A stretch of DNA of 64,000 bases from a virus (taxonomy: Duplodnaviria > Caudoviricetes): the IMG/VR virus record IMGVR_UViG_3300032227_000993; one strand, written 5' to 3'. The notes beneath the pieces were generated by a model that was given only the letters and a program-made list of their open reading frames with translations, had not been told where the DNA came from and searched no databases. A program made the position numbers and the translations under genes. Positions 7,937-23,445 of the stretch are shown in pieces (position 1 is the stretch's first letter; every line of letters starts with the position of its first letter).

Positions 7937-7984
7937 GGATGCCTTTGGTGTGATGTTTTTTTTGATGCCTTACCAAGATATTTA
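7937..7984 (-). promoter_or_regulatory. Late promoter and leader with two AAGGCATC motifs
   Basis: TAAATA at 7979-7984; AAGGCATC at 7964-7971 and 7938-7945, the latter over the ribosome-binding region. Confidence 0.55.
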
Positions 7985-8005
7985 TTGACAGATATTTTGG
8001 TCAAC

Positions 8006-8029
8006 AAAAAACCTGCCAAAGCAGGTTTT
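8006..8029 (-). terminator. Intrinsic terminator (probably the original capsid-gene terminator)
   Basis: AAAACCTGC-TTTG-GCAGGTTTTTT on the minus strand. Confidence 0.8.
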
Positions 8030-8051
8030 CTAAAACAAAGTAATTCTCTGA

Positions 8052-8078
8052 TTAAGAGAAAGACAAATTTTGAATGCC
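8052..8078 (-). pseudogene. Orphan remnant of the major capsid protein C-terminus
   Basis: GGC ATT CAA AAT TTG TCT TTC TCT TAA = GIQNLSFS*, versus AVQNLSFS* at the end of gp23 (10318-10344). Confidence 0.75.
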
Positions 8079-8091
8079 TTGCGGTGCTTGA

Positions 8092-9219
8092 TTATGCTCC
8101 AACAGGTGTTACAGTAACAATAATACTGGGACTTGCTGGATAGCCAACTGTGACATTTCCTGCCAGGGTTGGAAATCTAAAGTTAGTATTAGTTGCTGCA
8201 TAGGCTATTTCATAGTAGTCGCCAGCGGCGGTCACATTGGCCATGATATTCCAACTTTGGACTGTTTGAACAGTATTATCTAAAGTAAAAAATCCGCCTG
8301 TATCGGGAACGGCTGTGCCGTTTTTCTTGAACCATATGTATGCTGTAGAGCCGCCGCCGCCCACAGTTTTGTCAATCTGTGCGCTGAACTGGATGTTGTA
8401 CAAGCCAGTTTTATTAATAATAATACGACTGTTACTGGCACCTGTACCCAACTGTATATTATTGTGCCCGTCGGTATTGTTTAATAAAAAGTTATAGGCT
8501 GTGTTGGCCGAAGCTACAGTTTGTGTGAGATTACTCCAAAATTGTCCGTAAGCTGGTGTATAACTGATGTTGCCCGAAACTGATAAATTACCGAGTAAGG
8601 TCACATTACCAGTGGCTGGATCAGCATCATTAAATGGATCAATAATGATATCGCCAATACCGGCCACTGAGTTTGAAGATAGATACAACTCGTTGTCGGT
8701 GGTTGCCAAGGCTGAAGTGTTTACCAATGGTGTGGCAATGTTCACAGCTGAAAACAAAGTGTCGCCCAACACTGATAAGTTTCCACTGATTTCTGTAACA
8801 GTGGAACTGACAACTACAGAATTGTTGGAGCCGGCAATGTTGAGTGTGATATTGCCCGAGTTGGCCAGGGTAAGTGTGGTGTTGCCGGCTATTAGGTTTG
8901 CTTGTAATCCAGGAACCCCGTTGACTTGTAGTACGCCGTTGAAAACTGTAAGTTCAGCTGTGAGATTACTGGCCACATTTGAGTCGGTGATGTAAATTGT
9001 TCCTGGGCCTAGCCATAAGTTGGCCCAACGATTAGTGGCGTTGCCCAAGAAATAGGTGTTGTCAGCAGCAGGAGTAATGTTGCCAGCTGTGGTGTTTACA
9101 TAGGTTTTGAGTGTAGACCCACTCACGTGATATGTTGCGCCTGAGGAGTCAGTGGGCAACAATGACGTATCTGTCATGGTGGTTAAGTTAGGTAAGCCTG
9201 TGATATTTACGTTTGCCAT
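8092..9219 (-). CDS. Fibre-like virion protein with probable C1q/TNF-like (BclA-C-type) C-terminal domain
   Basis: MANVNITGLP N-terminus; ITPAADNTYFLGNATNRWANLW fibre motif; C-terminal YGQF...TGLYNIQFSAQI...WFKKNG...YYEI jelly-roll pattern. Confidence 0.6.
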   Translation of the reverse strand: MANVNITGLPNLTTMTDTSLLPTDSSGATYHVSGSTLKTYVNTTAGNITPAADNTYFLGNATNRWANLWLGPGTIYITDSNVASNLTAELTVFNGVLQVNGVPGLQANLIAGNTTLTLANSGNITLNIAGSNNSVVVSSTVTEISGNLSVLGDTLFSAVNIATPLVNTSALATTDNELYLSSNSVAGIGDIIIDPFNDADPATGNVTLLGNLSVSGNISYTPAYGQFWSNLTQTVASANTAYNFLLNNTDGHNNIQLGTGASNSRIIINKTGLYNIQFSAQIDKTVGGGGSTAYIWFKKNGTAVPDTGGFFTLDNTVQTVQSWNIMANVTAAGDYYEIAYAATNTNFRFPTLAGNVTVGYPASPSIIVTVTPVGA

Positions 9220-9231
9220 TTTATTTTTCCG

Positions 9232-9381
9232 TTAAAGTGTTACCAAGTCATCGCCAGAAAGCGTGACCAGTTGGTCGCCAGCAAGCGTAACAAGATTTTG
9301 AGGAGCAGGTGGGGTCACAGCAAAATTTCCAATGCTAATGCCGCCGCCAATTTCAATACCTCCACCTATCGCTATCGCCAT
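9232..9381 (-). CDS. 49-aa mini-protein (below the ORF-track cutoff)
   Basis: Hand translation: MAIAIGGGIEIGGGISIGNFAVTPPAPQNLVTLAGDQLVTLSGDDLVTL*. AGGA SD upstream; motif shared with 4374-4694. Confidence 0.7.
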   Translation of the reverse strand: MAIAIGGGIEIGGGISIGNFAVTPPAPQNLVTLAGDQLVTLSGDDLVTL

Positions 9382-21517: not shown

Positions 21518-21732
21518 CCCTATCTCCTGAAAACATCGAGCGTTGGCTTGATGAAATGGAGAAGGAAACAAACGATATTAGGCAGGAGGCATTGCGATTA
21601 GCTTGGTATATGCGTGGTGGTTTAACTTACGAACAGGCTTTGCATCTCAGTTACGCTGAACGCAAAATTATCAACGATATCGTAAAAGAAAACATGGAAA
21701 CAACCAAAAAATCAGGATTGCCTTTCTTCTAA
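21496..21732 (+). CDS. gp51-like tail/baseplate assembly segment, probably read by -1 frameshift from the gp26-like gene
   Basis: -1 frame is open from the slippery T-TTT-TTC (21496-21502) to TAA 21730-21732 and reads ...LAWYMRGGLTYEQALHLSYAERKII... Not in the ORF track. Internal ATG at 21556 lacks a clear SD. Confidence 0.7.
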   Translation, partial: FFRGRLLALSPENIERWLDEMEKETNDIRQEALRLAWYMRGGLTYEQALHLSYAERKIINDIVKENMETTKKSGLPFF

Positions 21733-21733
21733 T

Positions 21734-22234
21734 ATGCTTGACCTAGACACTGTACAATCAGATATCGAACACTGGATAGAAACTTTTGTAGAAGTTCCGC
21801 ATCCTGACCTAGGCGGTTGGCCCCCATGCCCGTATGCTAGAAAGGCTAGACTAGATCGCGACTTTGAAGTGCGCCTGGGCAAGGACCCTTACTGGGATGC
21901 CGCTGATGCCAGTATCAAAGGCCTGCCCAAGAGTGTGGTTGTCTATGCGTACGATGCTACCGTCTGGGGTCACATGGAATTTGAGTACAAAATAAATCAA
22001 GCCAATAACCATTGGCTTGTACCACATGACCTGCTGGCCTTGGAAGATCACCCAGCTGATGCAGAAATGGTCAACGGTGTGTGTATGAATCAAGGAACCT
22101 ACGCCTTAATGCTGGTTCAGAAACTATCAGACTTGAATGAAAAAGCAGAACTTGTGGCCAACAAGGGCTTTTATCACTCTTGGCCCGAACAGTATTTAGA
22201 AGTGTTGTTCAAACATCGCAAAGATCCAAGATGA
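21734..22234 (+). CDS. DUF1415-like hypothetical protein
   Basis: W-ETFVE-PHP-LGGWPPCPYARKA and LEDHP motifs, recalled as resembling DUF1415. Confidence 0.5.
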   Translation: MLDLDTVQSDIEHWIETFVEVPHPDLGGWPPCPYARKARLDRDFEVRLGKDPYWDAADASIKGLPKSVVVYAYDATVWGHMEFEYKINQANNHWLVPHDLLALEDHPADAEMVNGVCMNQGTYALMLVQKLSDLNEKAELVANKGFYHSWPEQYLEVLFKHRKDPR

Positions 22235-22665
22235 CTTATCAATATGCCAGAATAGATTTAGAAAAAAACACAGATCAGATTTGTGTAGATTGGGCGTATC
22301 TGACTGAGCCTGATATCGATGCGTTAAATGCCATCTACAGAACATACTGTATCTACAAACATTTTGGGAGTGTCATGCCCATGTTTGATAGCCAATACAC
22401 CGACAAAGATACCGATGTACTTGGTTATTATGACAATAAAAAATTAGTGGCATTCAGTTTGATCAAACGCTACGATGACAAAAATGCGTTGTGCGCACAG
22501 TTTGCCTGGAACTATCACAAGCCAAGATCTCGTTTGGGCATTGAAAGTTTAAAAACAGAATGTGCCATCTACAGAGAGCGCGGATTCAAGTACCTGTATC
22601 TTGACCAAGCACATTTGTACAAACACAGCATCTCAGGATTTGAAATACTAGGACCTCAGGAATAA
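22231..22665 (+). CDS. Aminoacyl-tRNA-protein transferase (ATE1/Bpt C-terminal GNAT domain)-like protein
   Basis: GYY---KLVAFS...FAWNY--P--RLG--SL--E-------GFKYLYL...LYK pattern matches the ATE_C consensus. Start refined to 22231 (ATGA overlap). Confidence 0.65.
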   Translation: MTYQYARIDLEKNTDQICVDWAYLTEPDIDALNAIYRTYCIYKHFGSVMPMFDSQYTDKDTDVLGYYDNKKLVAFSLIKRYDDKNALCAQFAWNYHKPRSRLGIESLKTECAIYRERGFKYLYLDQAHLYKHSISGFEILGPQE

Positions 22666-22667
22666 CT

Positions 22668-23000
22668 ATGGATATCTACACAATTTGGGCAGACAAAGAA
22701 GACAGTATCACAGATTTAGAGTTTGTCAACAACATGAAGGATTTTTTACAACATCTAGTGGATGAAGGTAAAATGGAATCTTACAGAATTACTCGTTGCA
22801 AAATGGGTTTTCGTAGCATTGCTGATATGCCTGAGTTTATGATCCTAATGGAATTCACAGACATGGGTCAAATGGACTCGGCTTTTAAACGTGTGGCTCC
22901 GTTGGAAGGAGAACTTGAACAAAAACACAAATCGTTTAATCAATTTGTCAAAGGAAACATTCAACACGCATTGTTTCGAGACTATCCGGATAATGTCTAA
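22668..23000 (+). CDS. DUF6614-like / dimeric alpha-beta barrel hypothetical protein
   Basis: MDIY-IW...DLEF...LQHL--EG-...YRITR-KMG...EF-I-MEF...ALFRDYPD pattern, from recall only. Confidence 0.5.
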   Translation: MDIYTIWADKEDSITDLEFVNNMKDFLQHLVDEGKMESYRITRCKMGFRSIADMPEFMILMEFTDMGQMDSAFKRVAPLEGELEQKHKSFNQFVKGNIQHALFRDYPDNV

Positions 23001-23011
23001 AGTCTATTAAG

Positions 23012-23445
23012 AGATTAGCTACGCTAATCTATGTCTTTCGCTAAAGCTCAGACATCTTTTTGCATCTTTTGTTTTTTGATACTTGATCTAGATTAACTGG
23101 TCGTAATTCACCCAATTACGGGTGAATTCGAATCTCTTGATCTGAGTTATACCTTCGTTTTTATTAATGAGATTGTGTATACACTACACACGGAGGCGGT
23201 TGACCGGTACCCCCTACTCAAGCTTCACATATCAACGGAACCCTAGTGACCCTAATAAAACAAAGTCCTATGAGCCGAGGTTGTATCTGTTTCACAGAGC
23301 CTCTACCATTTGATGCCTTAAGTTAGCAACTTTCCTTTCACACGCAAGCTCATCCAGACCGGGTATCTCACCGTTCCTCATTGCGAGTCGAGCAGCCTCG
23401 ACCAAACAGAGTGTTTATGATGCCTTACTAAGATGCCTGTGTAGC
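23012..23445 (-). ncRNA. Candidate ~430-nt structured non-coding RNA downstream of the GIY-YIG gene
   Basis: Long gene-free gap in a dense genome; terminal closing helix (23430-23439 with 23049-23058); at least four internal hairpins; 8-bp terminal hairpin at 23012-23030. Confidence 0.65.

Follow-up and report, generated by a model that had tools for sequence, protein, structure and literature searches.

An AGGCA(A/T)C box common to a few mRNA leaders and a large structured RNA of freshwater jumbo phages

The single-stranded DNA-binding protein (SSB) gp32 of phages T4 and RB69 binds to the leader of its own mRNA, which functions as an autogenous translational operator (PMC535899, PMC3014915). 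T4 gp32 is known to regulate only this mRNA, by means of a pseudoknot and an unstructured AU-rich tract (PMC535899, PMC3014915). The mRNA-specific control of gene 32 and the control exerted at the Shine-Dalgarno (SD) region are precedents (PMC535899, PMC3014915) for the kind of control proposed here, for a short sequence box that recurs in a few 5' leaders and in a large structured RNA. The box was analyzed in a 64,000-nucleotide stretch of DNA from a virus of the class Caudoviricetes (IMG/VR record IMGVR_UViG_3300032227_000993), called the window below, and in its relatives, which are IMG/VR contigs that reach 347 kb and carry terminal repeats. In the window, the box is present in the leader of a gene for a DnaE-like polymerase and in an RNA encoded 15 kb away, next to a gene for a GIY-YIG protein. 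The first-pass annotation of the window interpreted these loci as a candidate polymerase-RNA-nuclease system.

Among phages, the autogenous control of T4 gene 32 offers the closest parallel. The box is richest in the leader of a gp32-type SSB, and conserved repeated elements are positioned upstream of and around the SD sequence, as in the gene 32 operator. However, the element here is a sequence-specific heptamer that occurs in two to three repeats and is common to other genes and a large non-coding RNA. The arrangement also resembles that of CsrA/RsmA and CsrB/RsmZ, in that leaders hold several copies of a short motif, one of them at the SD sequence, and further copies occur in a possible decoy RNA. 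It differs from the Csr systems in its core, which is AGGCA and not GGA, with a C following GG in essentially all copies, and in the RNA, which has an ornate conserved fold with three boxes instead of a string of GGA hairpins. In the autoregulation of ribosomal proteins S8, S15, L1, and L20, the mRNA leader likewise copies a site of a structural RNA, whereas here several unrelated mRNAs carry the site, and the RNA is that of a phage.

The 17-mer on which the first-pass annotation was based is borne out by the sequence. The minus strand reads ATCTTGGTAAGGCATCA at 7979-7963, in the leader of the DnaE-like gene, and ATCTTAGTAAGGCATCA at 23434-23418, at the 5' end of the RNA, which are identical at 16 of 17 positions. 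The 12-mer TAAGGCATCAAA is present without a mismatch at 7972-7961 and 23320-23309 of the same strand, and all five reported copies of AGGCATC were found (7938-7944, 7964-7970, 23312-23318, 23419-23425, and 23432-23438). Both loci are non-coding, as had been claimed, and that of the RNA displays strong covariation. None of 300 shuffles of the two non-coding stretches produced a match of 16/17; the maximum was 15, reached twice. Degenerate copies of the 17-mer with up to three mismatches occur three times in the window, compared to 0.31 expected by chance. The bare heptamer AGGCATC is not enriched in the whole window (10 copies found, 5.9 expected), and five of the 10 copies lie within the approximately 600 non-coding bases of the DnaE-like leader and the RNA. 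A third copy, TAAGGCATCA, with three mismatches to the 17-mer (47312-47328, minus strand), is antisense inside a 4922-aa open reading frame (ORF; 47028-61796) and is probably due to chance. Relatives keep the box at both the leader and the RNA loci, mostly as AGGCAAC, and in many phages it is found in both leader and RNA, always in the sense strand. The 17-mer is one copy of a conserved box, (T)TAGWW-AGGCAWC, common to a few 5' leaders and the structured RNA.

The box is not restricted to the two loci. Pattern searches covered four large genomes: G001 (346,856 bp, with terminal repeats, 100% complete), G003 (98%), G006 (337,119 bp, 100%), and G007 (93%). In these genomes, tandem boxes are present in the leaders of a gp32-like SSB, of a protein of 109-115 residues (the 110-aa protein below), and of the DnaE-like gene where there is one. 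The hits across the genomes are nearly confined to these leaders and the RNA, and all are in the sense strand: in G006, eight forward and no reverse hits were obtained, versus two and one with a reversed-pattern control. A copy with one mismatch, TTAGAAAGGTAAC, is located 4 nt before an 87-aa ORF (loci L331/L332; G007:60054 and G006:81605).

We interpret the box as an RNA-level site of one trans-acting factor, with the structured RNA as its partner or decoy, and give this reading a probability of about 0.45. One candidate RNA-binding factor would recognize the boxes and set the translation or stability of a few mRNAs. The structured RNA would carry the same boxes as a cognate partner or decoy, in the manner of CsrA and CsrB or of the mimicry known from ribosomal proteins. 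The first box closely follows a -10-like or TATAAATA-like element, at a distance of a few bases, and would form the 5' end of the transcript; the last copy often, but not always, occupies the SD position. The candidate binders are, in order, the gp32-like SSB, since T4 gp32 represses its own mRNA; the 110-aa protein, because the box is present in the leader of its own gene; and the GIY-YIG protein. A more specific proposal, which we consider doubtful, is that the RNA is a cognate high-affinity partner or titrating decoy of the gp32-like SSB or the 110-aa protein, which would bind RNA sequence-specifically and use the AGGCAAC boxes to control the translation of replication-associated mRNAs. Processing or loading of the RNA could be a task of the minimal GIY-YIG protein encoded next to it.

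The RNA locus of the window consists of the following features.

23446..23874, minus strand: GIY-YIG gene, 142 aa, SegE-type, catalytic domain only (PF19835, 1.1e-33)
23001..23445, minus strand: structured non-coding RNA of about 430-445 nt, after the GIY-YIG gene
23419..23438, minus strand: tandem boxes AGGCATC-TTAGTA-AGGCATC at the 5' edge of the RNA, 7 nt after the stop codon of the GIY-YIG gene, predicted to be unpaired
23330..23338, minus strand: degenerate middle box, AAAGGAAAG in the window
23312..23318, minus strand: internal box, whose GGCA(N) pairs with UUGCU as the 3' arm of a 5-bp hairpin and is followed by CAAAUGG

The 445-nt region is a genuine conserved structured RNA. Its minimum free energy has a z-score of -3.6, no shuffled sequence giving a better fold. 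Aligned with one another, 30 homologues share 79 consensus pairs, 32 of them with compensatory changes. Homologues with identities of 72-95% were found in more than 100 contigs; the phages that carry the RNA are freshwater jumbo phages of about 320-347 kb. The RNA is similar to the ornate phage RNAs ROOL and GOLLD in its size class, its location in phages, and its rich covarying structure; however, it matches none of the 4227 families of Rfam 15, which were searched with the window RNA at E-values of up to 10 and with 11 homologues at E-values of up to 1. Accordingly, tRNA, tmRNA, ROOL, GOLLD, RNase P, and group I intron are rejected as its identity, none of their covariance models giving a match. 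ARAGORN predicted neither a tRNA nor a tmRNA, and a search of GenBank phages with the RNA as query returned no match.

The surroundings of the RNA are conserved. At more than 100 loci, a radical-SAM cluster is followed by the GIY-YIG gene and the RNA, which face a convergent block of DUF6614, ATE-like, and baseplate genes. A group I intron with a GIY-YIG homing endonuclease was rejected, given the lack of an Rfam match and of flanking exons. The RNA is not an intron because the upstream radical-SAM gene is complete with its own stop codon, the downstream gene is the convergent DUF6614 gene, and the synteny is fixed. The GIY-YIG protein is 65-86% identical among relatives (loci L081-L280), compared to 36-64% for the neighboring baseplate proteins, and the radical-SAM genes are also less conserved. 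In most loci, its gene directly precedes the RNA in a fixed arrangement, which differs from that of a sporadic homing endonuclease. No GIY-YIG match was obtained in the stretch examined for at least eight RNA loci, and the 5' box is also kept at several RNA loci where the upstream neighbor is a gene other than that for the GIY-YIG protein. The leader of the GIY-YIG gene contains no AGGCA box.

The boxes are among the conserved parts of the RNA. The 5' copy, usually TTAGAYAGGCAAC and directly behind the GIY-YIG stop codon, is present in 66 of the 87 scorable homologues and the middle copy, AAAGGCAA, in 75 of 87. The internal copy, CUUAAGGCAACAAAUGG, is termed invariant, with AGGCA in 87 of 107 distinct homologues. 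The hairpin of the internal box corresponds to alignment columns 167-171 and 179-183, and its closing pair covaries (UA 20, AU 2, CG 2). The box copies of the RNA are partly exposed and partly embedded in a covarying helix. That the internal copy is both invariant in sequence and part of a covarying helix supports a function of the box at the RNA level. The internal box was matched by the leader-style pattern search in all four large genomes, and with an AUG three bases downstream of the box, the internal segment looks like a translation-initiation region, judging by its sequence. A small ORF starting from this AUG was rejected; indels shift the frame among homologues, and the conservation is at the nucleotide level.

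A search at the 5' end of the window RNA gave no promoter-like site. Metatranscriptome contigs from four runs of three studies cover the GIY-YIG gene and the RNA of relatives, and two of these contigs (424 and 443 nt) bridge the 3' end of the GIY-YIG gene into the RNA. The bridging contigs are compatible with co-transcription of the GIY-YIG gene and the RNA; such contigs give no transcript ends, and conserved parts are preferentially placed. Near its 3' end (window 23040-23062, minus strand; alignment columns 471-495), the RNA contains a hairpin with a covarying outer stem around a conserved internal motif, UGAGC...GCGAA(A), which in many homologues reads UGAUGAGC...GCGAA and resembles tandem G-A or k-turn-like elements.

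The 3' part of the RNA is also the basis of an alternative named in the first-pass annotation, in which its GAUGC and AAGAUGUCUG strands pair antisense with the DnaE-like leader. The window RNA indeed holds AGAUGC and AGAUGUCU in this part, which are complementary to GCAUCU. However, the RNAduplex pairing of leader and RNA is no better than that of shuffled leaders, with z-scores of 0.07 in the window, 0.24 in G006, and -1.73 in G007, and among 65 RNAs, the last 150 nt never include the complement of the molecule's own 5' heptamer. Antisense pairing is therefore not borne out, and we regard it as extremely improbable. Since the 3' parts lack the complement, pairing of the 5' and 3' ends of the window RNA through the box is not conserved either.

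The strongest accumulation of boxes is in the leaders of the SSB gene, which was identified by its match to phrog_1192 (8.6e-68), the match to the Pfam gp32 family being weak (5.4e-4). All 61 of 61 unique SSB leaders contain one to three copies of AGGCA, with a mean of 2.64 as opposed to 0.056 in shuffles, and 123 of the 161 copies are AGGCAAC. Between the first and second AGGCAAC, 33 of the 61 leaders contain the inverted repeat ATCTAA-N-TTAGAT, or its variant ATCTAT/ATAGAT, which abuts the downstream box copy (L358-L437; for example, about 310-400 of L358). This inverted repeat may act as a hairpin in the RNA or as a palindromic operator in the DNA. The terminal repeat of G006 (1-41 and 336993-337033) begins in the SSB leader, exactly at AGGCAAC, which may reflect an assembly boundary instead of biology. 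The 110-aa leader contains the box two to three times. A TATAAT-like box is located about 40 nt upstream of the first AGGCA box of the 110-aa genes, and the boxes are therefore predicted to be in the 5' untranslated region.

The position of the last box relative to the start codon raises the question of its relation to the SD sequence. The leader of T7 gene 10 contains UUAACUUUA, an enhancer-like element beside the SD sequence, and Bacillus STAB-SD exemplifies SD-like 5' sequences that stabilize transcripts. The boxes might then require no dedicated factor and form a strong ribosome-binding module for highly expressed genes, composed of an enhancer-like AACUUUAGAA and a UAAGG SD, with the copies at the 5' ends of mRNAs and of the RNA being SD-like stabilizers that hold 30S subunits. 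The SSB leader, ...AACTTTAGAAAGGCAAC...ATG, does resemble the T7 gene 10 leader tttaactttaagaaggagatatacatATG, and AACUUUA-GAA-GG is common to the two; the T7 leader continues with GGAG and the box with GGCAAC, and only the latter is repeated and also present in a non-coding RNA. The box is in the SD window in 26 of the 61 SSB leaders, the last GGCA precedes the ATG by 3-9 nt in most DnaE-like leaders, and the ordinary SD sequence of the window genes, AAGGA(G/A), is one base from AAGGCA. However, the conserved CA(A/T)C adds no pairing with the anti-SD sequence. The box is not merely a variant of the SD sequence because 32 of the 61 SSB leaders contain a separate canonical GGAG or AGGA SD downstream of the last box. 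The leaders of the family B polymerase in the same genomes, as those of most other genes, contain ordinary SD sequences and no box, and the idea that the box marks replication genes in general was rejected on the same grounds. We therefore consider a ribosome-binding module without a dedicated factor to be quite unlikely.

In the DnaE-like leader, the box is combined with promoter-like elements.

6263..7936, minus strand: DnaE-like gene, 557 aa (PF07733, 1.9e-37; PF17657, 2.8e-11)
7938..7944, minus strand: second leader box, AAAGGCATCC and then ATG, at the SD position of the DnaE-like gene
7963..7979, minus strand: first leader box (the 17-mer), with its core AGGCATC at 7964-7970, beginning 7 nt downstream of the TAAATAT box
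7975..8004, minus strand: putative promoter region, from a consensus scan only, with a sigma-70-like TTGACC-18-TATCTT and a T4-late-like box AATAAATAT, in which TAAATAT is at 7978-7984
8005..8026, minus strand: hairpin ACCTGC-TTTG-GCAGGT and a T run, read directly from the sequence

The hairpin at 8005..8026, which is absent from the output of the consensus scan, is probably the terminator of the upstream gene, and the DnaE-like gene would therefore have its own transcript start. As the first box begins 7 nt after TAAATAT, it is at or next to the predicted 5' end of the transcript. The leaders of DnaE-like genes in relatives have the same architecture, in which a TAAATAT or TATAAATA box, kept in most of them, is followed exactly 7 nt on by the first AGGCA and then by a second, AGGCA-like copy. 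The box occurs one to three times in these leaders. GGCA is present in 50 of 57 unique leaders, with at least two copies in 31; in 37 of the 50, a distance of 3-9 nt separates the end of the last GGCA from the ATG. The DnaE-like leader of a more distant clade retains a single AAGGC(T/A), and the 110-aa leader of this clade has lost the box. AGGCA is not a general mark of TAAATAT promoters in the window, where other TAAATAT sites are without it.

In a subset of the DnaE-like leaders, an arm YUGCC after TATAAATA(T) pairs with the box GGCAR at the SD position, with the compensatory variants CUGCC/GGCAG, UUGCC/GGCAA, AUGCC/GGCAU, and UACC/GGUA. The hairpin is weak in the window (-2.0 kcal/mol). 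Similarly, T4 has a late promoter within the 5' arm of a hairpin that sequesters the SD sequence in its genes e, soc, 49, and I-TevI (PMC3014915), and many DnaE-like leaders pair a post-promoter arm with the SD-position box. In contrast to the T4 genes, the stable hairpin is formed in a subset only, and it leaves the box in the loop or at the 5' end, and the boxes of other genes, unexplained.

The fixed spacing of the first copy leads to an explanation at the level of DNA, in which AGGCAWC serves as initiator or operator in a class of phage promoters, that is, the start region of a modified RNA polymerase or direct repeats for a regulator. The RNA gene and the few mRNAs would then simply have a promoter type in common. 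In agreement with this, the first copy is positioned 4-9 nt downstream of -10-like boxes: 7 nt after TAAATAT in DnaE-like leaders, 4-8 nt after an extended TGTGTATAAT in some SSB leaders, and after TAAACT with TAGAT in the 110-aa leaders and at the RNA 5' end. The sigma-70-like element found in the window by the consensus scan puts the predicted start inside the first AGGCATC, and the ATCTAA...TTAGAT repeat of 33/61 SSB leaders is also a DNA palindrome. However, no -10-like box precedes the second and third copies at a usable distance, and some of these are directly in tandem with the previous copy (AGGCAAC-TTAGAA-AGGCAAC). The position of the last copy follows that of the start codon, the invariant internal copies are part of a covarying RNA helix about 100 nt into the RNA, and no promoter-like site turned up at the 5' end of the window RNA. 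A DNA-level signal is thus an unlikely explanation of the box.

The relation between the DnaE-like polymerase and the RNA was not supported by their distribution. G001 and G003, which are 100% and 98% complete, hold the RNA and no DnaE-like gene, contrary to the co-occurrence expected by the first-pass annotation, and they also carry the SSB and the 110-aa gene with boxes. Protein and Pfam searches for the DnaE-like gene were both empty in these two genomes, and both produced matches in G006 and G007. The sole PF07733 match in G001 and G003 was of 28-30 bits, in a frame of about 180-195 aa, versus 128-132 bits in G006 and G007. Short frames of about 180-197 aa with weak PF07733 matches (27-34 bits, profile positions of about 24-97) occur in all four large genomes (G001:28251-28472, G003:32954-33187, G006:117395-117595, and G007:22548-22760), apart from the 557-aa gene, and three of the four matches contain TAA. 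Conversely, 15 contigs of 54-118 kb that bear the DnaE-like gene do not contain the RNA. The 15-kb proximity of the two loci is not conserved, as they are 188 kb apart in G006 and 153 kb apart in G007. Obligate coupling of the DnaE-like polymerase and the RNA is rejected by this distribution.

The DnaE-like protein is composed of the palm and finger domains of C-family polymerases only; its PF07733 match begins at profile position 19, and a Pfam search found no PHP domain. A family B polymerase of about 889 aa is encoded in all four large genomes checked, and the 557-aa DnaE-like protein is therefore accessory. The DnaE-like gene is about 7 kb from the 110-aa gene in G006 (95.4 and 102.7 kb) and G007 (46.0 and 38.9 kb). 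In the window, it adjoins the capsid module, unlike in G006 and G007, and the gene has therefore moved. The window also holds a T4-type baseplate gene. At 3035-3125 of its minus strand, directly upstream of an ORF that ends at 3037 and has a canonical AAGGAG SD, is the Rfam freshwater-2 motif (RF02980) with 57.8 bits, above the gathering score.

The first-pass annotation had proposed a ribonucleoprotein, in which the RNA is bound by the minimal DnaE-like polymerase or by the GIY-YIG protein, with autoregulation through a mimic site in the DnaE-like leader. The presence of the box at both loci in the window, G006, and G007 agrees with this proposal, as do the tight linkage of the GIY-YIG gene to the RNA and its higher conservation relative to its neighbors. 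However, the RNA occurs without the DnaE-like gene in two genomes, the loci are more than 150 kb apart (153-188 kb) where both exist, and boxes are present in the SSB and 110-aa leaders of all the genomes. In addition, the GIY-YIG leader has no box, and RNA loci without a GIY-YIG match exist. We consider the ribonucleoprotein very improbable. The part of the earlier idea that stays plausible is a single factor with a site shared by the RNA and an mRNA leader, whereas the polymerase-RNA-nuclease system is unsupported by the distribution. We infer that the DnaE-like polymerase is a regulated target and not a partner of the RNA.

One observation in favor of the RNA-level reading concerns the variants of the box. 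The window has the minority variant AGGCATC in all five copies. Among the RNAs, AGGCATC accounts for 7/87 internal and 9/87 5' copies, and among the SSB leaders for 4/161 copies. The SSB leader L370, with two copies of AGGCATC, is from the same sample as the RNA L130, which is 95% identical to that of the window, and this match suggests, from the sequences, a genome-wide concordance of the box variant. AGGCAAC is used throughout in G006, G007, G012, and G025. The co-variation across loci, which the first-pass annotation had suggested as a check, was observed in part and is not strict, and a strictly concerted genome-wide change of the sixth base of the box was rejected as only partly seen.

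Several observations weigh against the reading of the box as an RNA-level site of a single factor. The copies disagree in 15 RNAs, with AGGCAGC at the 5' end and AGGCAAC at the internal site, and the 5' copy of the G002 RNA differs from the boxes of its SSB and 110-aa leaders. The fixed distance of the first copy from promoter-like boxes fits a DNA-level initiator equally well, and the last copy can act as an ordinary SD sequence of 4-5 nt (UAAGG). The metatranscriptome contigs show only that the GIY-YIG gene and the RNA of relatives are present in RNA libraries. The 110-aa protein belongs to no Pfam or PHROG family and has 2927 unnamed homologues; its AlphaFold2 model (pLDDT 53) is too poor for fold searching, and the Atlas yielded nothing for this protein. 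Homologues of known regulators were not found as candidate binders: CsrA (PF02599) had no match in G001, G002, G003, G006, and G007 in a search that matched three known control genomes, and RegA (PF01818) had none in four genomes, in a search without a positive control, as the control genomes did not match either.

The results correct the idea of a polymerase-RNA-nuclease system, as the RNA does not depend on the DnaE-like polymerase. They point to a small regulon of these uncultured freshwater jumbo phages, controlled post-transcriptionally or at the promoter, which would comprise the SSB, the 110-aa protein, and the accessory DnaE-like polymerase. What large ornate phage RNAs do is a long-standing question, for which the box shared with leaders provides a concrete handle that opens the RNA to experiment. 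If the SSB or the 110-aa protein is the binder, the boxes would be part of a phage-encoded circuit, similar to those of Csr or of ribosomal proteins, built around a new class of large structured RNA.

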